64,000 nucleotides of DNA from Octopus vulgaris (taxonomy: Eukaryota): positions 62,001 to 126,000 of the forward strand of contig OX597817.1 in NCBI GenBank assembly GCA_951406725.2, read 5' to 3'. Made by a program: the position numbers and the translations under genes. The notes below the pieces were generated by a model that ran no database searches, had not been told where the DNA came from, and was given only the letters and a program-made list of their open reading frames with translations. Shown here piece by piece: positions 450 to 61,228 of the stretch (positions are counted from its first letter, which is position 1; every line of letters starts with the position of its first letter).

Positions 450-1073
450 GTGGAAGCAAGGGGTGTGGGGATGCTCTGTGTGACCAACACTAATGTTTCC
501 GGGAATAGCAGGTCTACGGATACTAGCAATTACAGCGCTCTCAGTGATAGGGAAGACACAGGGGTTGGTCCGTTAATTAATAATGAGGAATATAAAGTAG
601 TTAGCGGCCGCAGTTCTCACAATCAATATAGTAACAGTAACGCAGTTTTAATATCAGAAGCTAATCCCAATAGGATAAGGTTCTTGTCGAGTAACTCCAA
701 GATCAGAAATGCCATTTACCAATGCAAGATTTACACGGATTCAGATGTCTACTCGTATGTCGGGGCCTCAACGTCAAAATTGGCCTTGAGAATTTCGAAC
801 CATTTCGCAACTTTTCGCGACGTGAATAAATACCATGCTACGGGACTTAGCAAGCTTATATGGCGTTTGAAGAACGCGAATTCAGCTTTTAGGCTGGAAT
901 GGTCGATTTTGTCGGTGGCCCTCCCATTTGATAGGGGCAGAAGGCGATGCAATCTTTGTATCTCTGAGCTTTTCCACATATTGTTCGCCAGAGACCGGTT
1001 GGTGAATGGTCTTTTACAGTCGGCTTTTCGATGTCCCCATTGGAGGCGTCATACATATCTTACATATAAATGA
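450..1073 (+). CDS. PLE GIY-YIG endonuclease domain (no RT; N-terminus reads out of the inverted repeat)
   Basis: AIYQCKI...YVGAS...LALRISNH..F...TGLSKLIWRLK...W.I......CNLCISE..HIL matches the PLE GIY-YIG C-terminal pattern. The start at 450 is a GTG inside the inverted pLTR, so it is not a true start. Confidence 0.75.
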   Translation: MEARGVGMLCVTNTNVSGNSRSTDTSNYSALSDREDTGVGPLINNEEYKVVSGRSSHNQYSNSNAVLISEANPNRIRFLSSNSKIRNAIYQCKIYTDSDVYSYVGASTSKLALRISNHFATFRDVNKYHATGLSKLIWRLKNANSAFRLEWSILSVALPFDRGRRRCNLCISELFHILFARDRLVNGLLQSAFRCPHWRRHTYLTYK

Positions 1074-1654
1074 TACCTAAGACAATTAACACCTAGTTTC
1101 CCTACTAAAATGAAAATAATCTTTGGAAATAATTTTTGAAAAAGCTTTTTAAGAAATCTATGAATAACCCTTGCAAGGGGAAATTACTCCCATTAGGCGT
1201 GGAACTATATATGCCATTAGGATTCTTTGACGATGTTAAATTTTGACAAGCAGGCCGAGTCGAACACACGAACACAAAAAATTCTTTCAGCCGCTTGACT
1301 GGTTTTTTCAGCAGTGGTCATTTTGTAGCCCCCCTCGCCAGCACACGACCACGCACACATAGGCCATCACACACATACATGCTTATAGGAGGCTTTTGAC
1401 TCGCCCCCCAAAATACACCCAGTATTCTTAAATTTTTCAGAACATTAGTGTTGGTCACACAGAGCATCCCCACACCCCTTGCTTCCACCAACTAGATCTG
1501 ACCGCCGCCTGACCTGTAGATATCTTCAACGCACCAAATCCCCGATTTCAACGTACATTGATAAACAGTTCAGCCATGGGCTCCTAAGGAGCATCTTCGT
1601 TCGAATTGCTGTGCCTCTGTTTTGATTTGTCCTGTCAACGGAATTCCTGTTTTT

Positions 1655-1734
1655 TTCCTGAAGAGAAAGCCGCAATATGGTACCCTTATTTAAACAGAAT
1701 TTGGAAATTTGTGGCCTTCGAAACATGTGTAGAA
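1655..1734 (+). ncRNA. Type I hammerhead ribozyme in PLE pLTR
   Basis: ttc-CTGAAGA-GAAAGCCGCAA...TTGTGGCCTTC-GAAA-C-ATGT-GTA-gaa: intact core, long stem II, minimal near-palindromic stem III and a GUA cleavage triplet. Confidence 0.75.
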
Positions 1735-1937
1735 TGTAATAAAAGGTATTCTGTACAATCTTCGTTCAACTCCATTTATTCCATTCACTAATAATATTAA
1801 ACTTCAATTATCCGCCCCAACGCACGGTTGCAACACCAAATGGTCTTATCTCCAACCGTGCTGTTTTCCGCTGTGATTTTTGCTACCCAGGTTAAACCTT
1901 TGAATAATCTGTTACAAGAAAATTCATCTTTCTATTT

Positions 1938-2000
<63 letters not shown>

Positions 2001-2149
2001 AACATGTTTATTTGTCTATCTATCTGAGTATGTGTGTGTATATATATATCATTTGACTACAAAAGAGTCTTTCATGACAGCACCAGTTTACTGGCTGAAA
2101 AAAGTAAAAGATAAAAAATAAAAGATATATATATATATATATATATATA

Positions 2150-2556
2150 CTCTTTTACTCTTTTATTCTTTTACTTGTTTCAATCATGTGACTGTGGCCA
2201 TGCTGGAGCGCCACTTTTAGTCGAGCAAATCGACCCCAGGACTTATTCTTTGTAAGCTTAGTACATATTCTATCTGTCTCTTTTGCCGAACTGCTAAGTT
2301 ACGGGGACGTAAACACACCACCATCAGTTGTCAAACGATGGTGGGGGGGTACAAACACAAACACACACACACACATATATATATACATATATACAATGGT
2401 CTTCTTTCAGTTTCCATCTACCAAATCCACTCACAAGGCTTTGGTCGGCCCGAGGCTATAGTAGAAGACACTTGCCCAAGGTGCCACACAGTGAGATTGA
2501 ACCCATGACCATGTGGTTGGTAAGCAAGCCACTTACCACACGGCCACTCCTACGCC
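2150..2556 (-). mobile_element. tRNA-derived SINE (cephalopod OK-like family)
   Basis: tRNA-like head (ggagtggccgtgtggtaag...gggttcaatc), CORE-like ccttgggcaagtgt, internal microsatellite and tail ggcgctccagcatggccacagtc..gattgaaacaagtaaaag. Confidence 0.8.
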
Positions 2557-2579
2557 TATATACATATATATATATATAT

Positions 2580-2647
<68 letters not shown>

Positions 2648-2712
2648 GCAGGCAGGCAGACAGACAGGCAGACAGACAGATAGATAGATGCATGCATGCA
2701 TGCATACATACA

Positions 2713-2743
<31 letters not shown>

Positions 2744-3479
2744 CCATAATATCCCAGAAACAGCTGTAAGACTATATCTCTATCTCTTTCCTTATAAATG
2801 TCCTGAAAACTCCTCACAGCCTTGGCTTTGTTATCTCTTTTTGTCTGATATATATATATATATATATATTTTACATATATATTTATATTTATATATACGA
2901 TGATGATGATGATGATGATGATGATATATATGACCAGATATAGCTGTAACCAAGGATATACTACTTGAATACATAAAAGTATAACTGCATAAAATTTTTT
3001 AGTGTGACTTTTTTTTTCTAACTTATGGACAACTGACTGATATACATGTGTCTGTGTATCTGTGTGTGTGCATGCGTGTTTGTGTATGTGTGTGTATGTG
3101 CATGTTTGTGTTTGTGTGTGTGTGTTTGTGCGTGCAACTGTTGTTCCTGTTTGGATATATTATGAATGCTTTTGATTTTGTTGTTGTTTCACTGTACGTG
3201 TTGCTATTGCTGTTTCTATTTTTGCTGTTATTATTGTTAAAATCAATGCTATCTGATTTCCTGCTAGCAGCAATATGTAACTCAGATTTTTCTCAGATTG
3301 TATCGACTTCCCTACACTGATCAATTGACGCAACTCTATCCCAGCAACCCTGCAAACCATCAATTATTCACTGCAGATCTCTAATACATTTCCCACTGGA
3401 TTTAGAAACAGAGAGGCACATGTCCCATCTCCAGGTACTGAAAGTTGTCTGTCTCTACCAACTAATGTCCAAGATCCAG

Positions 3480-9395: not shown

Positions 9396-10670
9396 CACTG
9401 GCACTGGTATCACAACTACAATTTCCATTTATGTTGATCGATTTCGATTTTCACTTGCCTCAATAGGTCCTCACAAGTAGAGTTTTGTGTCCCAAGAAGG
9501 AAAGGCATGCACAAGTGGACTGGCTACATCCCAGGTAGAGGCCACGAGTTATGGTCTCACTTGTCCTGCCGGGTCTTCTCATGCACAGCATATTTCCAAA
9601 GGTCTCGGTCATTAGTCATTTCCTCGGTGAGACCTAATGTTCGAAGGTTGTGCTTCACCACCTCGTCCCAGGTTTTCCTGGGTCTACCTCTTCCACAGGT
9701 TCCCTCAACCGCTAGGGTGTGGCACTTTTTCACACAACTATCTTCATCCAATTCTCGCCACATGTCCATACCAGTGAAAACGTCTCTCTTGCACACCACA
9801 ACTGATGCTTCTTAGGTCCAGCTTCTCTTTCAAGGTACTTACACTCTGTCGAGTATGAACACTGACATTACACATCCATTGGAGCATACTGGCTTCATTT
9901 CTTGCGAGCTTACGCATATCTTCAGCAGTCACAGCCCATGTTTCACTGCCATATTGCATGGCTATTCGTACACACGCATCATACAGTCTGCCTTTTACTC
10001 TGTGCGAGAGGCCTTTTGTCACCAGCAGAGGTAAGAGTTCTCTGAATTTTGCCCAGGCTATTCTTACTCTAGCAGTTACACTTTCAGCACACCTGCCCCC
10101 GCTACTGACTTGGTCACCTAGGTAACGGAAGCTATCAACTATTTCTAGTTTTTCTCCCTGGAATGTGGCGGAAGTTGGTCTCAGAGCATTTTCAGTGTTT
10201 ATTGCTCCTGAGCATCTGCCACATACAAAAACTATTTTCCTAGTTAGCCTTCCTTTGACATTGCTGCACCTCTTATGTGTCCATAGCTTACACTTGGTGC
10301 ATCTTATAGAGTTTCCACCTACACCTTTTCTACAGATCGAGCGGGGCCATCTAGCTGAAGGCGTTTGTGATTTGTCTACCTTCCTACTTACTAGGACTTT
10401 GGTTTTAGCTAGGTTGACTCTAAGGCCCTTCGATTCTAAACCTTGCTTCCTCACCTGAAACTTCTCCTCCAGTTCTGATAGAGACTCAGCAATTAGAGCA
10501 AGGTCATCAGCATAGAGGAGCTCCCAGGGGCATCCTGTCTTGAATTCCTCCGTTATTGCCTGGAGGACTATGATAAATAGGAGGGGGCTGCGGACTGAGC
10601 CTTGGTGGACCCCAAGCTCTACCCGAAATTCTTCACTGTACTCGTTGCCAACCCTCACCTTAATCAATGT
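9391..10670 (-). mobile_element. 5'-truncated RTE-clade LINE (RT C-terminal half + 3' UTR)
   Basis: GVHQGSVRSPLLF, LLYADDLAL, FRYLG, YGSETW, WYGHVAR and RGRGRPRKTW motifs (ORFs 9744-10694 and 9557-9799, frameshifted). The 3' UTR is shared with 55248-55730. Confidence 0.9.
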
Positions 10671-10699
10671 TGTTATCGTACAATGCCTGTGCAAGAAGA

Positions 10700-11160
10700 T
10701 TTTTTTTAAAGTGAGGAAAGGCTGTGCACCGAGTCAATCCCACTCACTAAGCAACAGCAGCCATAATCCGAAAAGAAGAACAAGTCAACATCATCGGTAA
10801 CCACTGAGCCGCAGGTTTTAAGTCGGAGTTATCCCAATTACCTGAGTTGCCTTCTCCAAGAAGGATACCCTAACAATGGCTAGGAGTCGTTCACTCTCAA
10901 TGGTTTAACTGCGCGATCGGGTATTCAATCCGATTATTTCTATGTCCCCGCGTATGATACAGCCTTAAGACATTTATCGGATGGCCGTTGACTCTCAAGA
11001 GTTCCTCCGCCCTTTGACGGGTTTTGTTTTTCATCCTGCAGGGTGTCCAATAAACACCCTCCTCACCAAGCGAGCTTGGTGGGGGTTGCTGGTTTAGTCG
11101 CCGACGACCCGACCATACAACAGGTTGTACTGGGTTACATGTTACCAGTAGCACTCGAAA
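10700..11160 (-). mobile_element. Probable RTE-type LINE 5' UTR fragment
   Basis: GC-richer non-coding block with ggagaaggcaactc...aaaacctgcgg, similar to RTE 5' UTR motifs. It abuts the RTE RT fragment. Confidence 0.35.
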
Positions 11161-12168
11161 TATGCATACATACATAATTGCATACATACATACATACATG
11201 CATACATACATACATACACACATACATACACGCATACATACATACGTACACACTCACATACATACATACATACATGCATACATACACACATACATACATA
11301 CATACATACACACATACATACACACATACATACACACATACATACACACACACATACATACATACATGCATACATACATACATACACACATATATACACA
11401 CATACATACATACATACATACATACACACATACATACATACATACACACATACATACATACATACACACATACATACGCACATACATGCATACACACATA
11501 CACACACATACATACATACATACATACATGCATACATACACACACACATACATACATACATACATACATGCATACATACATACATACACACACACACACA
11601 TACATACATACATACATACATACATACATACACACACACACATACATACATACATACATACATACATACATACATACATACATACGTACATACATACACA
11701 CATACATACACACATACATACACATACACATACATACATAGATACATACATACATACGCACACATACATACATACATACATACATACATACATACACACA
11801 CATACATACATACATACGTACACACATACATACATACATACACACACATACATACATACACACATACATACACACATACATGCACACATACATACACACA
11901 CACATACATACATACACACATACATACATACACACAAACATACATACATACGTACATACATACATACATACACACATACATACACACACACATACATACA
12001 TACATACATACATACATACATACATACATGCATGCATGCATGCATACATACATACATACATACATACATACATACATACATACATACATACATACATACA
12101 TACATACATACATACATGCATGCATGCATGCATACATACATACATACATACATACACACACATACACA
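11161..12168. repeat. About 1-kb (TACA)n/(CA)n microsatellite
   Basis: Direct inspection; it is the source of the spurious MYVC/HTYI ORFs. Confidence 0.98.
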
Positions 12169-12268
12169 CTTTGATACTTTGATACTTTGATAGGTTTCGG
12201 CCATTATTGGCCCAGGCCATGTCCAACTTATTATTGGCCCAGGCCATGTCCTGGTGAAGTCTTTCAAG

Positions 12269-15200
12269 TCAGAATTTGGGCACTATGGCCCACTCAAGTA
12301 GAGAGTTATTGTTTACAGAGACATATCCGGGTGTAGGGGGTTTATCCGGGATTTCTTGAAGGAATCTGTCCAAAGACTTCTTGAACCCTATAGGGTCAGT
12401 TTCTGTTTTAATGTGTTTTGGTGTAATGTTAAAGAGAGTGGGGCCAATTGAGGTGAAACAATTGTGCCGTATTGTTGTTATGAGATGAGAGTGCGATTTT
12501 TGTTTTGGGCGGATGGCACGGGGCCCAAGCCTTGGATGTACCTTAAAGGTGATGCCAACATCATTTGGGCAATGCTGATGGAATATTTTCCACATCATGC
12601 AGATGATGTAGCGCTCACGACGACGTTGGAGAGAATAAAGTTTTAGCTTTTCTAGTCGACCCCAATAGTCGAGGCCTGTCATGCCATCTATCTTTTTTGT
12701 GATTGCCCTTTGAGGTGCTTCAATTTTTATGATACCTTGTATTGTGTGGGGAGACCACAGTGGACAACAGTATTCAAGGTGGGGTCGGGCAAAAGTGGAG
12801 AAGAGAAGGATAATGGTGTGGATATCTCTCGACTGGAAAGTTCTGAGAATCCAGGAACACATTCTGCGGGCCATATCAACTTTGGTGTTTATATGAGTGG
12901 CCCAGCTTATGTTGTTGTCCACAATTACTCCCAAGTCTCTGATGTTGTTGGACGCCGCGAGAGTTTCACCTGAAGGAAGGGAGTATGGGAGTTTCAGGGC
13001 ATCCTCTTTTCCAAAGTGGATTAGCTCAAATTTATCCTCGTTCAGCAGCATATTGTTTTTTTCTGCCCATTGGATAACAGCCAGTAGATCTGACTGAAGG
13101 CATGTCCGGTCACTCGCCTCATTTATGACCTTCTGTAGCTTGGAATCATCTGCAAAGATTTTTATGTTGCTGTGCTTGATGATGTCATTAATGTCATTAA
13201 TGTAGATGATGAAAAGAAGTGGGCCCAGCACAGTGCCTTGCGGAACGCCACTACTGACTTTGGCTGGGCTTGATTTTACCCCTTCAACTACAACATGTTG
13301 AGATCTGTCTGTCAGGAAACACTTGATCCATTTCAGTAACTTTCCAGAGACACCAATGTTGGATAGTTTTTTCAATAGGATCTTGTGATCGACCCTGTCG
13401 AAGGCCTTACTGAAATCAAGGTAGATGACATCGGTGTTGGAGCCCTCTCCCAAAGCTCTCAAAATGTCATCAAAGTGATGCAGGAGCTGCGTTAGGCAGT
13501 CCCTTCCATTACGGAACCCATGTTGGTTAGAGATCAGCCGTCTGTTGCTTTCCAGAAATTGGGTTATTCGAGATCTCACCACCCTCTCAAATACCTTGAT
13601 GATATGAGAGGTGAGTGAGATCGGACGGTAGTTCACTGCAAGGGACTTGTTTCCCTTTTTGAAAACTGGGACAACAGACTGGGACAGAAGGTTTTTTGGA
13701 ATATAGCCAGCATCCAGTGAGTTTCTCCACAGATTAGCAAGGGGAGATGCAAGTTGGTGTCGACACACCTTCAGGACACAAGCAGGGAACCTATCGGGGC
13801 CTACTGCTGAATTGTGTTTTATTTCGTTTATTGCCGCTAAGACATCAGGGGCACTAAACGTTATGTCCGATATAGTGTGTTGGGGGTTGACATCACTGAT
13901 ACAGCCCAGATCGGCCATATCAGGATTGCTGAAAACAGAGCAGTATTGTTTCTGCAGTATCTCGGCCATGGATTTGGCATTATCTTGGAGAGTGCCAGTT
14001 TCGTCAATTAGAGGGCCAAAAGTGGAGACAGTGACCCTGCGTTTCTTCGCAAATGAAAAGAACACTTTGGGGTTGAGTTTGATTTTTTTCAATGGCCCAC
14101 TTCTCCTCAGCTGATCTTTGGTTATTGATGAGGGTCTTCATGCATTGTTGGAGGTTATATTTTTTGGATTCAAGCAGTGCGATAGCCGTCGAATGTGTGT
14201 GTTGCTGTTGGCAGTACTTTAGTTTGTTAATTTTTTTGTTTGTTCTTTTTATTTTTCTGATAATGGTTTTTCTGTTTTGGGGGATTCTGCACTTTTTGTT
14301 CACAGGTCTTGGTGGGGAGTGTTTTGCACATATGTCTGTGACGGTGTCTACAAAGATCTGCCAAGATGTTTTATGGTTGGTGGAGATGTGTGTATGGGTA
14401 AAGGACCAGTCAACATGTGATAGCTCGTTCCTGATTGCATCCCAGTTGGCATTATGGAGATCCATGTTGTCAAATGGGTGGGCTGGAGGGAGGTCACTAG
14501 GATTAGCTTTCGGCTGGTGGAATTTCATGTTACAGAGAACCATGTCATGGTCTGAAAGAAGGGTTTTTTCCACTGTAACGTTATGTATAGTGTTAGTGTG
14601 GTTACTAAACACTAGGTCCAAAATGTTCTGATGTCTTGTTGGTGCAAGGACAAGTTGGGACAAGAAAAACTCATTCGTAAAGTCGAAAAGTGACTCTGCT
14701 GCTCTTTGTCAGCGGTTGAGGCGGGAGTGCTTGGTTTCAAACAGTTTGTAGTCCAGTCAATACAGGGTAGATTGAAGTCTCCCATCATGAGTATGTTGCT
14801 AGAATGGCACTGTTGAATAAAGCACTTAATGCTGTTGAGGCATTCTTTAAAGCACAGTATGGGTGTTTGGGGCGGCCTATAGAGCCCAATTACTGTCAGG
14901 TCATTGGCTTTGTTGTGCACGGTGACTGATTCACAGTAGCTGTTGGAGAATATACTATTTCCATCTGCCGTTAATGAATCATGCAGGAAAATGGCAGGTC
15001 CACCCTTCCTCCTGCCGATACGATCCGCGCGGATGGTTGTGAAATTCTTCACTCTCACTTCGGCTTCCAAGTGGGAGTTGTCAAGGTGGGTCTCAGTGAG
15101 AATGAAGAAAGGGATGTGGTGTGAATGGTTACCAACCCAGTCTTCAATGAATTGGACCTTCCATTTTTGTGCATTGATGGAAGGGCTGACACCTTGTGCA

Positions 15201-15387
15201 TTGAGTAGAAATGTGGAGGTTAGTGTAGTGGCTGGTTTTGACTGTTGCAGGGGGCTTGGATTTTTTGTGTGTGTTAGTGGCAGCAATGTGGGGAATTGGT
15301 GCACTGGGGTAATAGCATATGATGGTGTTGAGTGATGGCTAGAATGTTTTTGTGTATCTCTTTTGCCATGTTCAACATGGCTAAAAA
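12269..15387 (-). pseudogene. LINE family A ORF2: AP endonuclease + reverse transcriptase, 2 frameshifts
   Basis: LNAQG, LTETHL, LYRPP, MGDFN, LDLVF and SDH (APE); NYRPISL, YLDFSKAFDRVDH, GVPQGTVLGPLLF and FADD (RT); LYSLQRRRER C-terminus. Confidence 0.93.
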
Positions 15388-16489
15388 GAATTTTCCTGCT
15401 TAGGGAGCAGTTTTTGGCTGGAGGTGTGGTTGCACTGTTGGATAGGGTTGTAGTTTCCACTTTTGTTGTTGTTGTTTTTGTGTCTTCCTGAAAAGACTGG
15501 ACCAGCATTACTGCAGCATGGTGTGTTTCTATTTTTATTTTTATTCAGGTTTGTGTGTTGGTTTGAAGCCCCGTTTCTGTTTGTGCGTCGGGTCCCTGGA
15601 AGATGAGTGAAGGGACAGTCACTCATCAGACATGTTCTCTCACGTTGGGAATACCGGCAGATTTTGGGACTCCGAGTTGTGTGTGTTTTGAATTTCGATT
15701 TACTATTTGGTGGTGTTGATGTTATTGTGGGATGCGTGCTTTGGCCTTGGCCGGTAGTGCGTCTAGTGCCAGGTAGATGCGTGAGGATGCAGTCACTATT
15801 TGTGCAGAGTCTCTGGCGCAGTGAATAGCGGCATATTTTGGGATTTCTTGTTTGTGCCGTGGGGGGCGCATTTTCTTCCTATGTTTCTTTAAGTTTTTGT
15901 TACTGCAGTAGTATTGAGGTGGTGATGTGGGGGAAGAGGGCAGTGGTTTCTTATTTGGTTTTTTGTTGGTATTTTTGGTGATAGAAGACGATGGTGGCAG
16001 CGGTGGTGATGATGATGATGATAATTGTGGTGGTTGCCGTGAGAGCGGTGAAAAGATACTGGCATTTAGTGAATCATCTAGTAAGCTAGAGTTGAGGAGT
16101 GGCTGTTGTTCTTGTTGCTGTTGTTGTTGTTGTGCTTGACCTATGTTAGGGTCAGCCATTGTGCTGGGAACCAGGAGTGTCTCATTCTGTTGTTGTTGTT
16201 GTTGTGGCTGCTGATTTTCTAGCTGTTGCTGTTCTTGAACTGTGAAAATATAAAGAAGCTTTTCAAAATGGCCTTTTGTCAGTTTGAAAGATACTTCGAT
16301 ATGTTTCAGTTTGCTACGAATCTGTTTGACGGATCGTGTGTTGACCACTTGTGATGTTTTTTCGGCAATCTCATTCAAACACAAAACATTTAGATTTTCT
16401 GTTTGGGAAAGAGAGAACCAAGTGTTTATTAAAACATCAATTTCGTTATCAGACCAATTTCGTCTGTTGCAGGCCTGCAAGTTAGTCAT
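15381..16489 (-). pseudogene. LINE family A ORF1 (Myb/trihelix-like N-terminus, polyQ, two CCCH fingers), frameshifted
   Basis: Split into ORFs 15722-16489 and 15381-15626, colinear with the intact ORF1 of copy 2. Confidence 0.85.
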
Positions 16490-16883
16490 GTTTGTTTTTC
16501 TTTTGTTCGTTTTCCTTTTGATTTTTGAAAATATATATATTCTTTCTTGGGAGTTAAAGAAGTGTATATATATATAAAATGTTCTCTCTTAAGGGTGTGA
16601 GTTTTTGATTATTTGGTTGTTTGAGGATATTAAAAGAAAATGTTCTCTCTTAAGGGTGTGAGTTTTTGATTATTTGGTTGTTTGAGGATATTAAAAGAAA
16701 AACAGGTGTATATAACAATTTGTAGTTAAATAAAAACGTACTTACGGGTTTGTAGGCAAACACGTGGTTACAAATATATATATATTTAAGGTCAGTTAAG
16801 TTTTGAAGCTGTGTAGCTTGCTACTGACTTGGGAGAGAAACAAATAGACGTCCGTCCAGTTCAACAGTTCAGTATATATTTCA

Positions 16884-17087
16884 TACACACATACATACAT
16901 ACATACACACATACATACATACATACATACACACATACATACATACATACATACATACATACATACATACATACATACATACATACATACACACATACAT
17001 ACATACATACATACACACATACATACATACATACATACATGCATGCATACATACATACATACATACATACATACATACATACATACA

Positions 17088-35743: not shown

Positions 35744-36640
35744 ATGTCCAGAACCTGGAGACGTGACGAATTGGCGTTGTTCGTACGAGCCTGGAAATGC
35801 GCCGACGGAGATAACTCTAACAATATAATTACGGCTGCGCTGAAGAGCCGTAGTTATAAAAGGACAATAGCTCACATAGAGCGGAAGAAGCAGGAGTTCA
35901 TACTCTCCTATGCACTTGCACGAGCTCACATTGGCCCGCTTGATGCCATCTTTGAGAACGAACAGGGTAAAGATGGCAAGGATGGAGACGCGCGTGCTGA
36001 TGAAAGAAGTCACCCCCACCTGGTGGACACCCGGGAAGAGGTTTCGAGTGAGAAACCTGCCCGGGAAGTAAACCCAAGTGCAAGTGCTCCTACCAGCACC
36101 AAAAGCCATGGAGATGAAGAACCCAAAGAAGAAATAAAAGGAGGAAAAACTAAAAGAAAAACTCAAACAAAACCAAAAAATGAAACAGCCAAGAATAGAA
36201 GTAAAACTGACTATCCATATACCAAAAAGGATGGAAACAAACAGCGCACACGGGTGTGTAGGTTCTACCAGAGAGGTACCTGCTGGCATGGATAGGAAGG
36301 TGCAGGCTGCCGTTTTGCACATCGGGGACCTTGCCGCAGAGACACGAAACAGATCAGAAACAAACCAACAAAAGGAAAAGGGATGGACCACGCACCACCT
36401 GCCCCAAAACAGAGGTACGCAGATGTGGTGCGTGCCACAAACCGCCAACATGATGTTGTTGAAAGGGCAGCTGCTGAACAAGAATCTTTTTTGTGCATGG
36501 TACAAAAGATTGTACAGCAGCTAACCTGGCTTCATCAAACCCAAGCTCGCAGATGGGACTACCCACAATATACAAGATCACCACAGCAAACAGACCCAAG
36601 GTGGACACCGCCGGCAACAGCATACACCTCACCTCGATGA
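35744..36640 (+). pseudogene. LINE family B ORF1 (Myb/trihelix-like N-terminus, CCCH finger), one in-frame TAG
   Basis: ORFs 35744-36295 and 36383-36640 share a frame. The TAG at 36293-36295 interrupts CRFYQRGTCWHG*EGAGCRFAH. Confidence 0.8.
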
Positions 36641-39589
36641 TCCTACTGAACATCAGAGGACTGCAAACACTCAGTAACAGGACAAAAATCCCGTTCTTGA
36701 GAGACTTAGTTGCATGCAATCAAGCCTTATGCATAGCACTTACGGAAACGCACCTGAAACCGGACATAGCAGATGCGGAATTACACATACCACAGTATGT
36801 TGTACTACGGACCGACAGAAAAGAAAGGAGTCATGGAGGAGTTGCTATGTACATCCGTGAGGACCTCACACCCCAGGTCCTTTTGTCGTACTCAAACTCG
36901 GTGTGTGACACACTAATTGTACATATAAGGCAACTTGATGTAGGTGTGTGTGCTACATATAGCCTTCCAGATGCCCCAAGCCATGTAGGCAAGTTTGAAG
37001 ACTGCCTTATAAAAATAGAAGAAGTTCTAATCACATTAGAACAACACATAAGTGTACTTCTTATGGGAGACTTCAATCTACCCAATGTCAGATGGCCCGA
37101 GGGCCTTTCTCTCCCAGGAATGACAAGATGTGAACGAGGACAGGCGAGGTCCCTCCTGAACATCATCAACACCCTGTACATGGAGCAAGTAATACTCCAA
37201 GCAACCAGAGCAGGTAACACACTGGATCTCTGCTTCACAAATAATATGGATCTCATTCATATTGTGAAAGTGACACCGACACTACTCTCGGATCACAACA
37301 TGGTACAGCTGACCATGTACGGGCCAAATGAAAGCATGGACATGCAGCCTACAAGAAACCCTCAGAATCTTTCCAGCTTGAACTTCCATAAGGCAAACTG
37401 GAAACAAATTGAGAAAGAGATCCTCAAACAAAACTGGCCTGAATGTCTCTCCTCGCCAGACATCGACGTGAAACTTCAACAATTCATGTCTGTAATGCAA
37501 GCCATATGCTACAAATGTGTCCCAGAGAGAAAGGCCACTGTACACAAGAACAGAGAGAGGAAAATTTTAATGAGACGGCGTACAAAAATTTCAAATCGCC
37601 TAAACAAACAAATTGAAAGCAGTGAAAAGTCCCGCCTGAAAATAAAACTGTTGGAAATTGAAAAATGTCTGCAACACTCCCATGAAAAGGAAAGAGCAGA
37701 CAAAGAAGCCTGGGCTATAGACAACATAAAATCTAACCCCAGAGCTTTCTACAGGTATGCCAAAGAAACAGCTACGGTGCACTGTAGGATAGGGCCACTC
37801 CTTGAAAAGGATGGAACACTCACAGGAAAACCAATGAGGGTAAGTGAAATACTGAATGAGCAATTCAAGAGTGTTTTCACTCCACCCCTTGGGCATTTCC
37901 AAATCACCAATCCAACTGACTTCTTTACCGCTGCAGATATAAAATCAGAGGCGGCGACGATAAATTACATCGATATAAAGGAAGACGATGTAATAAAGGC
38001 TATAGATGAAATGAAAACAGACTCAGCTACTGGCCCCGATGGATTCCCGGCAATCCTCCTAAAAGTATGTAACAGAGTCCTAGCAAGACCACTGCAGTTC
38101 CTCTTTCAGAGCTTCCTTGCAACTGGCAAACTTCCAAGAAAAACTGAAGGAAGGTAAAATATGCCCTATTCATAAATGAGGTAGCAGAGCGGAGGCCAAG
38201 AACTACAGACCTATCTCTCTGACCTCACACATCAGCAAGGTCATGGAACGAATAGTCAGAAGGAAACTGATCACCTTCCTTGAAGAAAATGACTTGCTGC
38301 CTGACACCCAACATGGTTTCCGACCATGGAGAAGCTGCTTAACTCAGCTCCTACAACACTATGACTGGGTGCTGAAACGATTGCTCAACCACTCAAATGT
38401 GGAAGTGATATATCTCGACTTTGCAAAGGCCTTTGATAAAGTCGATCATGGAATGATATGTCACAAACTGCGTGATCTCAGCATAGTTGGAAAACTGGGA
38501 GAATGGCTTCATGACTTTCTGAAGAATAGAAGTCAGGTGGTAGTAGCCAATGGGGCCACTTCCATTAACACGCAAATAGTGAGCGGTGTTCTGCAGGGCA
38601 CTGTTTTGGGACCACTACTGTTCATAATGGCCCTCTCAGACATGCCCTCAGCCACGCAGAGAGCCACGATCACAAGTTATGCAGATGATACAAAGGTTTC
38701 ACAGGCAATACAGAACCCTGAGGACACTAAACGCCTGCAATGTGAGCTGGACAAAATATACAAGTGGACTGAAAAGAATAGCATGCAGTTCAATGCTGAA
38801 AAGTTTCAAGCTTTATGCTATCAGCATGCAAAACTAAATGCAATACCCAATAAATACACTGGACCTGGAGGGATTGCAATCCCAGAGGCACAATCAGTGC
38901 GAGACCTGGGTATTTACATGAGTGATGACGCAACCTTTCCTGTACATGTTGATAAATTGGCAATGAAATGTAGACGACTGGCCGGATGGATTCTCAGAAC
39001 CTTTAGAACAAGAGAACAAGAAACCATGATGGTCCTCTGGAGGACACTTGTCCTAAGCCACTTTGACTATTGCTCTCAGCTATGGTCACCATCCAGTGTC
39101 AAGTTGATCACAGAACTTGAGGCGATCCAACGTAGCTACACGAAGAAGATAGCCTCTATGCAGAATATAAGCTACTGGGAAAGACTCAAGAGATTAAAAC
39201 TCTATTCCTTGGAGCGTAGGCGAGAAAGATATGCCATAATATACATCTGGAAGATCCTGGAGGGACTTGTCCCAAAGTTTGGCATCGAGAGTTACACAAA
39301 TGCCAGAACTGGGCGCCACGGCGTGGTGCCTAGAACTCCAAATTTGCCATCAAGATGTAGGACAAGATACTGTGATAGCCTGGGCTTCCGAGGCCCACAG
39401 CTCTTCAATATCCTCCCGAAGAATCTAAGAGACCTGCATGGGGTGGATGCAGATGTCTTTAAAATGAAACTGGATCTCTTCTTGTCAGGTATCCCAGATG
39501 AACCAACTTCACGACAGGAGGTGCAGATGAGGGCAGCTGCATCGAACTCTCTCATGCACCAAATGGTAGTTGCTAAAAAGCATTCGTGA
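36487..39589 (+). pseudogene. LINE family B ORF2: AP endonuclease + RT (frameshift near 38140, stop near 38177)
   Basis: LNIRG, LTETHL, MGDFN, LDLCF, SDH; NYRPISL, YLDFAKAFDKVDH, QGTVLGPLLF, YADD, LYSLERRRER. Confidence 0.92.
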
Positions 39590-39827
39590 AGTAAAACCAT
39601 GTAGCAACACCAAATGGCGGTGCCCCAGCATGGCCACAGCTCATGAGCTGAAACTAGAATCAATCAATCAATCATATATATATATATATACATATATGTA
39701 AAGTTAATCCATATATATATACATATATATATACATATATATCCATATATATATATATACCCCAGCACGGCCACAGCTCGTGAGCTGAAACTAGAATCAA
39801 TCAATCAATCAATCAGTCAATACATAC

Positions 39828-44538
<4,711 letters not shown>

Positions 44539-45026
44539 AGGCACTATATATGTATATACATATATATATATATATATATTAGCTTAGTTTCCCATATGTT
44601 TGTCAGTATCTCAGTCTAATTGACTGTTTGATTTGTACCCCCACACGTACATGTATATGTATGCGTGTATGTGAGTTGTGTGCGTGTATATATACATATA
44701 AGTATATATACATATGCGTGTATATATGCATATAAGTATATATACATATATATGTATACATATATATATACACATTTGGTTATGTAATGATCTAGTTATC
44801 GTAGTTTTTTCTATATAATTATTAGATTTTAACTTTACGTTTATTCGTAAGACTTTACTTAGCCAAACAGATACATACATCGTTAACAGTTATACGAGTT
44901 TTTTTAAAGTTAATTTTCATGTATATACATGTATTGATAGCATAAAATTTAGTCTTAAATAACTATATTTTTTTTCTCTCCTTTTTTTTTCTCTCCTTGT
45001 TTCTCTCCGTGTTTCTGCTCTGTGTA

Positions 45027-47546: not shown

Positions 47547-50500
47547 GTCAGTAAAATCCTAGACCAGCTCATCTTCGTCGGAGCCCTCTTCGCTGCTTAT
47601 ATCAAAATAAGCAACAATGATATCCAGATGTAATGCAATACGATCGTTTCATGCAATTCCATGTAAGTGGGCAATGTCATCTTTACATCAATTTAAAATG
47701 CAGAGCAATCCTCAGCTGCACAAATACATAGAATTTAATTAAATTAGAAAAGTTGGACACATTTGTATAATTATACCTAAAGTCTCCAAGAAGTTAAAGA
47801 GATAGACAAAGAACATTTTGCTTCAACTTCACCATGGAAGTTATCTTCTGTATTTCTTTGTCTCTGACACTGCTGCCTGTCCTGCCTTTCTTCTTGTTTC
47901 CATAGACCTTCAACTTCGGGAGTGTTGGGCTTCAGATGATTGAAAAAATATTATGTTGTCTTCTACGCATCATACTTAATGTTCTGAAGTAAACTATCTA
48001 AAAAATCCACAATAAATCCCGAGTGTTCTCTTGACTGTCTGCACCTGTCTTTCTATGAATCCGTGACCTTTGGGGTTGTGTGGAGATGTGGTTATAATGT
48101 TGAACCCCTACCCACCGGCTAGCTTTTTGAATTCCTATGATGTGAACTGGGTTCCATTGTCACATATGATTTGCTCTGGTATTCCTTTCTCTGCTAGAAA
48201 TCCTCGACCCACTGTAGTTATTATTTTGGCTCTCAGGTCTTTCACTTTTCTCCCAAATGGGAATTTGGAGTGGTAGCAGACCATAATCAAATACCATTCT
48301 TGGTTCTCTGTGAACATATCTACTACAATCGTTTGCTATGGCCTTCTTGGAATGACACTGGATATCATTTCCTCCTTTTGTTGTGAGTTTCTGTACTTTT
48401 GACAGATGTGGCATATAGAAACCACCTTTTCTATATCTTTGTACATGCCTACCCAATATATAGATGACTTGGCTCTGAGTTTGTATTTTTCCATTCCCAG
48501 AGGCCCTTGGTGGATCTTGTCAAGGATCTCTTTTTGCATTGATTTGGGGGGCGTAATTATTCTCAACTGATATGTCATCATGGATGGCCCAATATTCACG
48601 AATGAGGGGCTGCACCTGATGTCTCTTCTCTGGCCACCCCTGAATCACCATCTGAGTAAGGAGCTGGAGTTCTTCATCTTTGCTGGTCTCCTCTCTGATT
48701 TGTTCAAGCTTTGTGTTTGTCACATTTACAATGTGGTGGACCTTTACACTTAGTCCTTCCATCTCCTGTTTATCATGTGAGGATAGTCTGGAAAGAGCAT
48801 CCGCCAATATCAGGTCCTTTCCTGGCTTGCACCTGATATTGTAGTCGTATTTCTGGAGCCTCGACAGTAGCCTTTACAGTTTGGCTGGTGCTTTTGTGAG
48901 GTTTTTTTCTGTATATTTGTTCTAGCGGACGATGGTCTGTTTCAATATTGAAATGTCTGCCATACACGTATGTATGAAACTTTTCACAGCTATATACTAC
49001 TGACAGGAGTTCCCTTTCAATGTTTGCATACCTTGTCTCTGTGGGTGAGAGAGCTTTCAAGGCATGTGCAATAGGTTTACCTTCTTGTATCAATGCTGCG
49101 CCAACTATTCTCATAGAAGCAGCGACTTGGAGTGTTACTGGTTTGCGTCTGTCATAGTACTGCAGAGTTGTCTCCTTACTGATGAGCTTTTTGATTGCGC
49201 TGAAATCCTGTGTGTGTGAAGCACACCAATCAAACTCTATGTCACCTTTGTTTAGTTCTCGAAGATTTACAGTGTGATCGGGCAGCTTGGGTATGAAGGC
49301 TCCCATGTAGTGGATGAGTCCCAGGAAGCTCCTGAGTTCCTTCTTGTCTTTGGGTTCTTTGATGTCCCTGACGGCTTCCACTTTAGCGAGGTCTGGTTTC
49401 ACCCCCTCTGCAGAGTATATAATTCCAGAGAATTTGCACTTTTTTGCTTTGATCACACACTTGTCTGCATTGAGTTTGATATCTGCTTGTCGGGTTTTCT
49501 CCATAGCTTCGTGTGAATTGAAGTCATGTGTGATCTCATCCTTGCCTTGCACTTGGATATCGTCTGCTATCCCAGTTGCTCCCTTGCAGCCTTGGTAGGT
49601 GTCATCTATTTGGTACCTTTAATCCAAATGGGAGTCGGTTGAATCGGTATCTGCCATATGGTGTGTTGAAGGTAGTTATCATCGATGATTCTTTGTCTAT
49701 CTTTACAGTCCAGTACCCATTACTGGCATCCAGTTTGCTAAATATCTTAGATCCAGCTAATGATGGTGGTGTGATTTCTTCAAGGGTTGGAATTGGATGG
49801 TACTCTCTTTTTAATGCCTTGTTCAGATCCCTTGGGTCGAGGCATATCCGTAGGGTACCATTGGATTTTCCTTTGATTACAATTGAATTCACCCAGTCTG
49901 TTGGTCGTGTCACTTTGGTGATTATTTCTTTTTTTCCATTCTGCCTAACTCTGCCTTCAGCTTCTCCTTTAATTCTAAACGCAGCGAGGTGGATGAACAA
50001 CTGGTTTGGCATTGGGGTCGACTGTTATATGGTATCGACATTTCTCAAAACACCCAACTGTATCGTTAAAACATTCCGGGTACATGCTTATCAGTTCCTC
50101 TTTGTTTGTGCTTGGTGGTCGGTCTTTGGTAGTCATATCTCTGTCAATCCTGCTCGGCGCTACCTTCACTTCACCATTGATTGACACAATATTAAGCTTT
50201 TGACAGGTATTAAGTCCAAGAATTGCTGGTCCTTCTGTTCTTGTAACTTTAAAAGAACATTTGATTATTTTTCCTTTGTGTGTCCATGTGATTGTTGTTT
50301 TGCCCAGTTGTGGAACCATGGTACCTCCGTATGCAGTGAGGATTACATCACTTGGTATGAGGATTCCTTCTTTGACTTTAACTTCTTGTGTCATGTGTTC
50401 TGGGAACATCTTTTTGTAGAAGTTGACAGGTAAGATATCACTCTTATCGCTCCAGTGTCAATCTTTAGGTTTAAGTCAATGTTTATTCGTTTCTTGCCTG

Positions 50501-56655: not shown

Positions 56656-57970
56656 CTAGCAGAATTTCCCGGTGATGCTCGGGGCTGAATTGCTTGAACG
56701 TACTGTTAATGATTGCACTGAATTATGATGATTATTCAGGCAAATATTGATATAAGTTTACGCTGGGAGATAAGGACTTAACGATCAAACGTGTGCCATT
56801 GCATTGTTTTGGAGGAACCAAATTTCTAATGAGCATTATAGGGGCACCAACTTTAAGTTTGAGAATGTGTGGTGGTAGTCCTGAGGGCTCAAAGGAATTG
56901 AGTACCTCTATTGGATAGTTGATCACGTCCTCTGGGTCAGGAGTTGTATCGATAGACTTATATACATAGACATCCCCAGGAATGAGTTTTAGCATTTCAT
57001 CATTAATATGGTGAACAGTTTTATTCCTCGGGGCCAGAATAGCCCTTTGGCCAATCCAATCCATATTCTGATAATTAGCTTGTAGATCTGGGAACACTGC
57101 ATCTCCGAGATCAGAAGGCGTCTTAACAATGGTACAAATGGAATCGATGGCAATATTACCATTTTCATCCCCTGATATTTTGCCTTCGCCAAGTGCAAGG
57201 AGGGTGTGAGAAAATGCTGCTGATGTAATATTACGTCGCATATGAGCACGCATATTGGTGTGAAGTTTGAGAGTCTTCACCAGTGGCCACAATGTGGATG
57301 ACTTAAGACACGCACTTACTGCATTAGTTCTAGTCCCTTTGGGAATAACGGGAAGTGTTTGTCGGAAGTCCCCTGAAAGAAGAAGTGTTATGCCTCCCAT
57401 GGGAGCTGAAGAGTGTTTGATGTCTCTGAGAGATCTATCTAGTGCCTCAAGAGCACATCTTTGGGCCATCGTGCATTCATCCTAAACGATAAGCTTGTAT
57501 CGTCTGAAGACTTCTGCCTGATCGGAGCTGTTACTGATGTTGCAAGTTGGTGTCTCAGTCTTCACTAAGTCAAGCGGAAGCTTGAAAGTGGAGTGAGCTG
57601 TCCTGTCACCTGGCAACAAAGTAGTCGCAATTCCAGATGATGCCACAGCTAGGGCAATGCCTTGTGTTCGCCTAATCTCAGCCAATATTAATTTGTTGAG
57701 AAAAGTTTTCCCAGTGCCCCCAGGAGCGTTAAGGAAAAATATCCCCACAGCTTTGGCCCGGACTGAATTAACCACGGAGTTGTAAGCGAACTTCTGTTCT
57801 GGAAGGAGCTTTGGCTCATTGTCGGCTATGTACTCGGCAAGCTCGTCAACATTAAAACATGTCTCACGCAGCAAATGTGAAGACAGAGTGTTTGTGCCTT
57901 CCCGGTTTGTTGAAGGTAGGCCATAGACCGACAAGGCACTACCGCCCATATCAAGTACAGTATCTTCGAA
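56656..57970 (-). mobile_element. Helitron 3' fragment with Pif1-family helicase remnant
   Basis: GGTGKT Walker A, ASSGIA, TAHSTF, IV*DEC, GDFRQTLPV, ILAPRN, LPPH.L.LKVGAP and CNGTRL. Terminal hairpin CCCGAGCATCACCGGG (56668-56683) followed by the CTAG 3' end (56656-56659). Confidence 0.9.
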
Positions 57971-59020
57971 CGTAGTTTGTTACCACACAGCCACACCTGC
58001 CCCTATGTATGTGTGTTTGTGTGTACGTGTGTGTGTGTATGGGTAGATATATTATGCATGTATATATGTGTATATATATATGCGTGTACATATTACATGT
58101 ACATCTATATATATATATACATCTACACATAAAATACAAAATAGAAAGTTATATCTTGATATCGCTAGTGATAACAATACTCAAAATATATAACAGACTG
58201 GAATTGTAGGCCCGTCTCTTGCAATTTCGATCAATTGGATCTTGTATAGAAGTGTACGGCTGCAGCGAAATTCATTTTTGGACTTTCTTCTATCGAAGGC
58301 ATTTTAACATAAATGCTTCCGTAAAGACGGTGAAAATATTGTCAATTTCCCCAACCAGGGACACAATTCAATTTTAAAACAATAACCAAAGGGTTACGAT
58401 TTACAATTATTTAACAAATGCAACACAACAACGTTTCCCTGACGAGGAACCAACAAACGTGATTACAATAGTCAAACAGTAATAATAATAACAACAAAGC
58501 TTTTTAATGTATCCCCATTTATGTGAAACCACTTATTCAAGTTCAAGTCATTGATGCAATTTTATACGAATTGCTAATACACACACACATAATAAGGGTG
58601 AAATATTGAATATTAATTTGATTAATATGAATTGAAAACCAGTGGTGTAGCATATAAGACCACAGCGGATCTTCTAGCAAAAAGGATGACCAGTATTAAT
58701 TGCTCATCCCTTTTATATAAATACTTTCACTTTAATTGTTGCACACTTGCAAAGAGAAAGGAGGAGAAAGTGTAGTGGTAATGGTAGGAGTGAAGCACTT
58801 GAAATGAAAGAGGGAAATCGTAAAATATTGAGTTTTCTCGAATTTTTGCTTAATTGGGGGTGAAATTGAAAAAACTTTACATGCCACGACCCGATAGAAT
58901 CTACTTGTAAAAATGATAGGTAAATTCCAATTGAAGAAATTCTATATTGTAGAATTGTATAAAAAACGAACGGTTTGGGAGGCAGAGAAAATCTGCCTTT
59001 TATCATAAGATATATATATA

Positions 59021-59490: not shown

Positions 59491-61228
59491 AATAGTAAAG
59501 TGTGAAAAAACGACAGAAGGCTTAAATGTTAAAAAATATATATATTTGTGTCAAAATGTCTGGAGAATATTGGAAAAATTTTTTTCCTTTCCTTAAAATG
59601 ACATAATTTTAAAATTTTTAAAGAAATTACCGGTTTCGCGTGTAGCTTTTCAAATTTCTTGTGACGTTATGTTTATATTGCATGGAGTTATCGTTGTCTT
59701 TATTTTTAGGAGATTTCTAAATAAGGGGAGGTAGTGAGTGATTTCTTCCGGTGTAAGGGAGATAATCGCTTAAAAATTTTTTCCCCCTTCCCTTGTTAAT
59801 TTCTCTGTGTCAGTATGTTCGGATGGTTGAGTCTGGGTTTGTACTTTTCAATGAAGAATGTTTCCTTGTTCAGTCTCATTTGTGTTGATGATCCGAAAGC
59901 ACATTGGTAAAATGGGAAGATTAAAAATTGTGGCAGTAGTTGCTTTGCGCATTTCTCAATGTGCTCACTAAAAGGTATCATTCTATATTCTGGGAATGCA
60001 ATCTGTTGTCGATGCAGTGTGCATCTACGCCTGAGTGATAGTCCCGTGGAACCCACGTAGTCTTGGTGGCAGCCCGAGCATTTAATGACATAAATTATGT
60101 TTTCAGAGGCACAAGTAAGTTAGATTTGATCTTGAATTTCTGTCCCTCTTTAAAGAAGAATTCTGATCCTTCCAATAGGTTAGGACATGTTGCACATTTC
60201 GATCTACCACATTTTTTTACTTTTGCATCCGTGATTTTAGAGGACAATTTTGCCTTTGTGAGAATCTTTTTAAGTGATTTAGGCTGTTTGTAGCTTTTAA
60301 TGATTTGGTGTATGTTTAGAATTTCCTTTAATTTTGGGTTTTTATGAAGTATTGGTAAATTCTGGGTGATGATGGTGAAGGCTTCTTTGTTTCTGGGGTT
60401 GTATGTAGATATGTAAGGTAGTATTTTCGGGGAAGGTGTGTTGTTGTGTTGAACTTTTCTTAAAGTTTCTATGTTGATTTCTGTTGCACGTCTGATCCCA
60501 TCCTCTATGAGTTGAGCTGGGTAATGTCTGTCAATTAGGGTGTTTTTGAGTTCTTGCAGTCTAAAGTTCCTGGTATTTTGTTCTGACACTATTGTGCATA
60601 TCCTTCTTGCAAGGTTGAAGGGGATGTTTGTTTTAGTGTGTCTTGGGTGGCATGCACACTACATCGACAACAGATTGCATTCCCAGAATATAGAATGATA
60701 CCTTTTAGTGAGCACATTGAGAAATGCGCAAAGCAACTACTGCCACAATTTTTAATCTTCCCATTTTACCAATGTGCTTTCGGATCATCAACACAAATGA
60801 GACTGAACAAGGAAACATTCTTCATTGAAAAGTACAAACCCAGACTCAACCATCCGAACATACTGACACAGAGAAATTAACAAGGGAAAGGGAAAAAATT
60901 TTTAAGCGATTATCTCCCTTACACCGGAAGAAATCACTCACTACCTCCCCTTATTTAGAAATCTCCTAAAAATAAACACAACGATAACTCCATGCAATAT
61001 AAACATAACGTCACAAGAAATTTGAAAAGCTACACGCGAAACCGGTAATTTCTTTAAAAATTTTAAAATTATGTCATTTTAAGGAAAGGAAAAAAATTTT
61101 TCCAATATTCTCCAGACATTTTGACACAAATATATATATTTTTTAACATTTAAGCCTTCTGTCGTTTTTTCACACTTTACTATTTTCTTATATATTCACC
61201 CACGTGCTTTACCAAACAAACTTTCTTA

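Follow-up and report, generated by a model that had tools for sequence, protein, structure and literature searches.

We have analysed a 64,000-nucleotide stretch of Octopus vulgaris DNA (the window, from contig OX597817.1), which is AT-rich and contains many microsatellites. On its plus strand lies a LINE of a family that we call family B, with an ORF1 from 35744, an ORF2 with APE endonuclease and reverse transcriptase (RT), and an (AATC)n tail. The APE and RT domains in ORF2, the upstream ORF1, the repeat tail and the many dispersed copies identify it as an APE-type non-LTR retrotransposon. Its assignment to the CR1 group is our assumption from its motifs, the RT tree described below holding no named CR1 references. 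The closest named relative of the family B ORF2 protein is a protein of Octopus sinensis (60% identity). The parts of the element are as follows (window coordinates, all on the plus strand).

35744..36640: ORF1 as it stands in this copy, with a basic linker, one CCCH finger and a C-terminal helix beginning S-F-L-C-M
36257..36322: CCCH-type zinc finger of ORF1, interrupted by a stop private to the copy
36475..36477: TGA, the last stop of the ORF2 (-1) frame before the endonuclease
36478..38157: 5' part of ORF2, with APE-type endonuclease (PF14529, E 2.6e-9; PF03372, E 1.8e-6), linker and start of the RT
36487..36493: slippery heptamer U_UUU_UUG, phased for a -1 shift from ORF1 to ORF2
36494..36648: ORF1/ORF2 overlap, frame 0 being the ORF1 C-terminal helix and frame -1 a predicted trans-frame linker
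36500..36515: 6-bp hairpin GTACAA-AAGA-TTGTAC, weak and broken in the family
36554..36558: UGGGA, 80-89 nt above the ORF1 stop, possibly a TURBS-like motif or merely Trp-Asp codons
36637..36640: AUG at position -4 of the endonuclease Asn, with the AUGA overlap in this copy only
36647..36649: ORF1 stop TGA in the family-majority reading, read by hand with C at 36640
38180..39589: 3' part of ORF2, the RT beyond a frame break (PF00078, E 4.5e-28)
39657..39673: (AATC)n 3' tail, read from the sequence

The CCCH finger is a weak Pfam zf-CCCH match (E 0.0049, below the curated cut-off) and aligns with the first finger of multi-CCCH ORF1s. This copy of family B is decayed, with a frame break in ORF2 near 38157-38180. 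Directly behind the element lies a second family B 3' end with an (AATC)n tail (39623-39914, 80% alike), tail to tail with copy A2 of another LINE family. Further mobile-element remnants were read by eye from translations at 48773-50457, 56732-57979, 9744-10733, 60095-60658 and 447-1073; we take them to be LTR-type pol, PIF1-like helicase (Helitron-like), RTE-like RT and GIY-YIG/Penelope-like pieces.

This other family, family A, is present in two minus-strand copies that are 94% alike, A1 (12056-16905) and A2 (39820-44576), and it shares 38% of amino acids with family B over endonuclease and RT. Its junction sites are:

43121..43127, minus strand: A2 slippery site U_UUU_UUA in S-F-L, with six T
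15382..15387, minus strand: the equivalent site of A1, with five T

Family A had been presented as a second case of the same signal. A2 indeed carries U_UUU_UUA in S-F-L, but neither copy shows an intact -1 join, and family A is therefore weaker evidence than had been implied. A1 has five T and five C, A2 six T and six C, and a single -1 step would work only from a form with six T and five C, which was not observed. The family A ORF1 (43016-44284, minus strand) has an N-terminal Myb/SANT-like match (PF13837, E 1.8e-5, just under the cut-off) in addition to two CCCH repeats.

The junction in this copy and in its family

A preliminary description of the family B junction had located five features, and all five coordinates are correct in this copy. 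The TGA at 36475-36477 shuts the ORF2 frame; from there on, this frame stays open to 38157, into the endonuclease. TCT TTT TTG stands in the ORF1 frame, giving T TTT TTG at 36487-36493, and this is more than chance would give: under the codon usage of the element itself, the probability of the spelling NNU UUU UUR, given S-F-L, is 0.013. Taken in isolation, the length of the open -1 frame was rejected as evidence. Further upstream, between stops at 36259 and 36451, this frame has another open run of 63 codons, and accordingly the 53 open codons before the AUG are unremarkable by themselves.

On the other hand, two of the five features belong to this copy rather than to its family. We aligned contigs of four DNA runs from four organisms (703 to 3002 contigs each) to 36200-36900, the resulting family fractions being contig depth and not copy number. 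At 36640, C makes up 99.89-100% of family depth, and the family therefore reads ATG CTC CTA CTG AAC, with its ORF1 stop at 36647-36649 by hand reading. Position 36501 is C in 99.85-99.98%, by which the second pair of the hairpin is lost and four contiguous pairs are retained. With C at both positions in more than 99.8% of depth, the AUGA and the 6-bp hairpin are both absent from the family. Accordingly, the ATGA at 36637-36640, which had been read as a termination-reinitiation signature, is present in the copy through a single-base change, and we rejected it as a family feature (about 0.1% of family depth). The hairpin does follow the heptamer after a 6-nt spacer, as had been described, but it fails as a canonical stimulator: it is worth -4.8 kcal/mol, is broken in the family and has no counterpart in the other CCCH families. 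The hairpin and the AUGA are copy-specific noise. The premature ORF1 stop TAG at 36293-36295 is likewise private to the copy, because 36293 is A or G in essentially all family depth. This case warns that signals read off one decayed repeat copy may be private mutations.

Among the variant rows listed for the four DNA runs, there is no substitution or indel at 36483-36500, and none at 36475-36477 or 36637-36639. This supports, but does not prove, that the heptamer is invariant within family B.

Conservation of the slippery site among CCCH-ORF1 elements

Relatives were collected by a HMMER search (150 ORF2 relatives), by contig scans (160 LINE loci) and by genome look-ups, which gave more. Most of the DNA relatives come from host DNA that had ended up in bacterial bins. 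Near full-length animal LINEs are present as contamination in many bacterial and archaeal MAG records (loci L001-L080), and one bin alone has 42 endonuclease matches. Multi-CCCH ORF1s like those of A and B occur in four of the fetched families, L002, L003, L013 and L198, and among CCCH ORF1s the F-L-x-M helix is kept as a peptide.

The preliminary description had named the spelling of the F-L codons as the feature to compare, and the -1 frameshift that it proposed survives this comparison, while its supporting hairpin and AUGA do not. Five CCCH-ORF1 families have x-F-L at the junction, and in every one of them the spelling is NNU UUU UUR, with no synonymous variation of F-L beyond this pattern: TCT TTT TTG in B and L013, TCT TTT TTA in A2, ACT TTT TTA in L003 and CTT TTT TTA in L198, the first residue being S, S, T, S and L for B, A2, L003, L013 and L198. 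Inside ORF2, x-F-L is spelt in this way at 20 of 336 sites (6%), and at 1 of 17 in the six CCCH families. The per-site probability from the codon usage of each element is 0.013-0.075, and the joint probability for the three families outside the discovery set (L003, L013 and L198) is about 2e-4. These three belong to one RT subclade and are thus not fully independent; L198 has a frame break upstream of its slippery site.

The five families share 32-51% of amino acids, with 27-40% codon identity at identical residues. Synonymous sites among them are near saturation, and therefore shared ancestry of such sites does not explain the junction spelling. In the same five families, none of three all-Phe columns is all TTT and none of 11 all-Leu columns is all TTR. 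Judged from this codon comparison, the slippery site is real and conserved at the nucleotide level.

A sixth CCCH family, L002, belongs to the RT clade of B; it has no F-L at the start of the overlap, but an in-phase A_AAA_AAC lies 21 nt into the open frame. In L003 and L013, the stretch from the upstream stop to the endonuclease Asn contains no Met, nor is there one in A2 or in most of the A1 overlap. Predicted proteins point in the same direction: of 17 relatives whose predicted ORF2 protein extends at least 45 residues upstream, six have FF at 29-74 residues before the endonuclease Asn (0.8 expected) and 11 are without it. In each of the six, an FF is at least once followed by R, I or S, as would be expected if the next base is A. 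The ORF1 of P0157 reads Y-F-L. Two further predicted proteins, P0005 and P0153, pass unbroken from ORF1, out of its CCCH region or the residues ahead of F-L, to the ORF2 frame and could be natural fusions or indel copies.

A rival reading is that only the F-L-x-M helix start is conserved, while the heptamer and the open frame arise by chance from T-rich codons and from few stops in an A/C-rich region. The conservation of the helix as peptide, the role-less 63-codon open stretch upstream in the same frame and the presence of three in-phase heptamers within 894 nt of the family B ORF1 would fit it. Considering that five of five stands against 20 of 336 at saturated synonymous sites, that L002 keeps a heptamer without F-L and that families without a usable Met need some recoding route, this reading is largely refuted by the comparison of codons, and we give it very little credence.

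In the RT tree (midpoint root), A, B, L001, L002 and 17 proteins form one clade with FastTree support of 1.0. L003, L013 and L198 group together elsewhere (0.965), among families with other types of ORF1; RT neighbours carry esterase-like or PHD-like ORF1s, domain labels that were read by eye. By this placement, the CCCH ORF1 with the slippery site is found on two RT lineages, and exchange of an ORF1 module between lineages is one reading of the tree. A "clade-wide" signal, as had been claimed, thus holds for four families with DNA in or near the RT clade, for three outside it and for six proteins, which is short of a broad survey. No relatives were found in viral contigs and plasmids. Genome searches had matches in 2 of 251 genomes and in 1 of 52, each of them known beforehand, and gave no new in-clade element; a metagenome scan of 1 of 64 parts gave no in-clade junction. 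ORF1 protein searches added one new relative, all matches in an ESM Atlas search were under 0.9, and a PDB search gave one non-significant match.

For a wider view of the junctions, 166 of 280 sequences had the endonuclease start, 132 of these were intact with 500 nt upstream, and they formed 78 clusters at 70% identity, 26 of which had no ORF1 of 150 codons. In the 52 families with an ORF1 of at least 150 codons, ORF2 is in the -1 relation in 20, in the +1 relation in 11 and in the same frame in 21. Six of the 20 rows of the -1 type overlap by less than 20 nt and were dropped; B was among these, shortened by its private stop. We then put in B, L014 and L009 manually and took L009 out again as a cluster duplicate. 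An in-phase heptamer is present in 11 of the 16 resulting -1-type junctions, where synonymous resampling expects 5.7 (P=3e-4). Leaving out B gives 10 of 15 families (P=0.004); leaving out the CCCH families gives 6 of 11 vs 4.0 expected, which is no significant excess (P=0.10). In all eight overlaps of at least 150 nt with a single relevant heptamer (L198 left out), the heptamer lies in the first quarter.

Other junctions in this survey take other forms. The L014 family and the related L028 have U_UUA_AAC right before the ORF1 UAG (F-L-N-stop and Y-L-N-stop), out of phase with ORF2 in L028, probably through an indel in a G run. In five +1-type overlaps (L015, L020, L102, L182 and L188), the sole Phe codon is CCC_UUU_(CCG/CAG/CCA/UAG) or UCA_UUU_CGC, a context that resembles the PA-X/amalgavirus +1 motif UUU_CGN; three others (L079, L174 and L179) have no Phe in the overlap. 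Seventeen same-frame families have one stop between ORF1 and ORF2 (UAG-G in 8, UGA-C in 5, UAG-C in 2, UGA-A in 1 and UAA-G in 1), examples being L035, L048, L060, L090, L132, L167, L169, L171, L186 and L229, and nine of the 17 have no Met before the endonuclease Asn. Taken as raw counts, these junctions resemble viral readthrough contexts. The junction type differs among close RT relatives (L035/L023 with L177, and L186/L174), being same-frame, -1 or +1, which suggests either switching of recoding routes or single-base contig errors. The ORF2 N-terminus of L223 (genome G004) carries a 2A-like LLLLSGDIHPNPGP, and a 2A-like sequence is described for CR1/L2 elements in a passage of PMC3708506.

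Predicted route of ORF2 expression

We consider programmed -1 ribosomal frameshifting at the U_UUU_UUG of 36487-36493 to be the probable source of an ORF1-ORF2 fusion in family B. Most ribosomes would complete ORF1 with its C-terminal helix, and a few would move back by one base at UUU UUG, translate about 50 linker residues and so reach the endonuclease. The product would be an ORF1-linker-endonuclease-RT fusion, which would serve as the working ORF2 protein in the manner of gag-pol.

The consensus for eukaryotic -1 frameshifting, in the outline given by PMC3542737, is a heptamer X_XXY_YYZ with A, C or U as seventh base, plus a stimulatory structure. The family B heptamer is in phase, with identical XXX and UUU as YYY, the -1 frame is open over 36478-38157, and the conservation goes beyond the peptide. 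The seventh base is G in B and L013 and A in A2, L003 and L198. As to the stimulator, expected as a stem-loop or pseudoknot 5-9 nt downstream, local folds show none: the 67 nt behind the family B site have z +0.53, with 137 of 200 shuffles folding as well, and no stimulatory local structure was found in the 40 nt behind the sites of the CCCH group (z -0.8 to +1.4), whose best score is z -2.8, for A2 at 60 nt. Judged by its letters and predicted folds, the family B site is like a retroviral -1 shift site but short of two canonical features, the stimulator and the seventh base. Strong hairpins at canonical spacing were found only in L009 and L082 (U_UUU_UUA, one cluster; -16 to -17 kcal/mol, z -2.3 and -3.2), and on predicted folding these two are the best canonical -1 signals among the families surveyed.

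Because no local stimulator is present, the shift rate would probably be low and basal, in keeping with the low level of ORF2 that part of PMC9115989 describes for L1. With somewhat less assurance, we suggest that the peptidyl-tRNA-Phe may slip as long as the Leu codon in the A site is still undecoded. According to a passage in PMC6547452, the HIV site is able to shift ahead of Leu addition when Leu-tRNA is in short supply, and by analogy such a route in family B would be independent of the seventh base.

The main alternative, which we regard as unlikely though live for family B only, is that ORF2 is made mainly by termination-reinitiation at the AUG of 36637, in the manner of SART1 or caliciviruses, with the slippery site inherited, active in sister families and secondary or vestigial in B. 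Among the rows listed, no variant stands at 36637-36639, UGGGA lies within the 40-90 nt TURBS range above the stop, P0002 (59% identical) also begins MILLN, and G as seventh base may weaken slippage. Against this, the AUGA is a private change and the family stop lies 10 nt downstream of it. Moreover, the AUG itself is not what relatives conserve: position -4 of the endonuclease Asn, a hydrophobic beta-strand position, is I in 24, F in 19, L in 10 and Met in 5 of 75 relatives, and among closer relatives the residue is I in P0001, V in P0030 and T in P0139, although these may be decayed copies. UGGGA occurs in the same window above the stop in 4 of 51 other families, a loose end in the family alignment shows TGGAAC in its place, and the -1 frame is open all the way from the heptamer to the AUG. 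It is possible that family B has both routes, frameshifting and reinitiation, considering the AUG, which seems fixed in the family, the nearby family stop and the UGGGA.

It is very unlikely that the six-T run has its effect ahead of translation, through slippage of RNA polymerase or RT that adds a base in some transcripts or copies and so fuses the frames. The T run does differ in length between A1 and A2, P0153 passes from the ORF1 to the ORF2 frame at the same spot, and RT slippage at the HIV U6A site is reported (PMC5737442). Nevertheless, no indel row was found at the run in the four DNA runs at the 8% threshold, the phase is kept in every family although polymerase slippage would not need it, and the C_CCU_UUA and U_UUA_AAC of other families are not long homopolymers. 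The least probable reading, non-AUG or AUG-independent reinitiation or internal entry as in L1, with the heptamer serving another role such as RNA packaging or ORF1 binding, would draw on the dependence of ORF2 translation on ORF1 translation that a part of PMC2881922 describes for L1 and SART1, but it does not account for the phase being fixed, for the heptamer lying where the open frame begins at its 5' end, or for the exchange of heptamer for heptamer.

Going beyond family B, we tentatively propose, with rather more doubt than confidence, that the ORF2 of invertebrate CR1/L2-group LINEs is commonly made as a gag-pol-like fusion, by recoding of the kind used by viruses, and that these elements change from one recoding route to another. 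The routes would be -1 shifts (U_UUU_UUR, A_AAA_AAC, U_UUA_AAC and C_CCU_UUA), +1 shifts (CCC_UUU or UCA_UUU_CGC, PA-X/amalgavirus-like) and leaky readthrough of a single stop (UAG-G, UGA-C), and a module of CCCH ORF1 and U6R would move from one RT lineage to another, its shift needing no RNA stimulator. With a conserved slippery site, animal LINEs would be able to set the ORF1:ORF2 ratio much as retroviruses do. If frameshifting is the route, ORF2 would be made as an ORF1 fusion, with a bearing on cis-preference and particle assembly, and many ORF2 starts would be mis-annotated at the first Met.

Comparison with known systems

Frameshifting may already have been suggested in older papers for LINEs with overlapping ORFs. 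In the open full-text literature, we found no demonstration of frameshifting at the ORF1/ORF2 junction of CR1/L2 or other animal LINEs. By term counts in the text available of PMC4120745 and PMC13343379, "CCCH", "frameshift" and "readthrough" are absent. Translation of the second ORF of LINEs is described as unclear in a passage of PMC3708506, and the studied cases, as summarised in part of PMC2881922, point to reinitiation.

Among CR1-group (Jockey-superfamily) LINEs, family B has the usual ORF1, APE-RT ORF2 and short tandem-repeat tail, and differs in its CCCH ORF1. SART1 (UAAUG translational coupling) and L1 (ORF2 reinitiation), as outlined in passages of PMC3708506 and PMC2881922, likewise have a bicistronic LINE RNA, and family B has an AUG near the ORF1 stop; in family B, however, the AUGA is private, the AUG is unconserved in relatives, and the junction is an ORF overlap of about 160 nt that carries a slippery site. 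In Drosophila HeT-A, a gag frameshift in a non-LTR retrotransposon is noted in part of PMC5009743, but this shift lies within the gag of an element without RT and not at an ORF1/ORF2 junction. The Dictyostelium elements TRE5-A and TRE3-A, which according to a statement in the review PMC5911963 require a -1 frameshift for ORF2, resemble family B as APE-type non-LTR elements, a likeness drawn from that statement; they differ in being amoebal and in targeting tRNA genes.

In the site itself there is a likeness to HIV-1 gag-pol, whose -1 frameshift site is given as U_UUU_UUA in a passage of PMC6547452. In both, a frame-0 Phe-Leu lies on a six-U run, and an upstream structural ORF is followed by an RT-bearing ORF in the -1 frame. 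Family B differs from HIV-1 in having G as seventh base and no stable stem-loop behind the site, and in being a non-LTR element, whose predicted fusion would be the counterpart of gag-pol.
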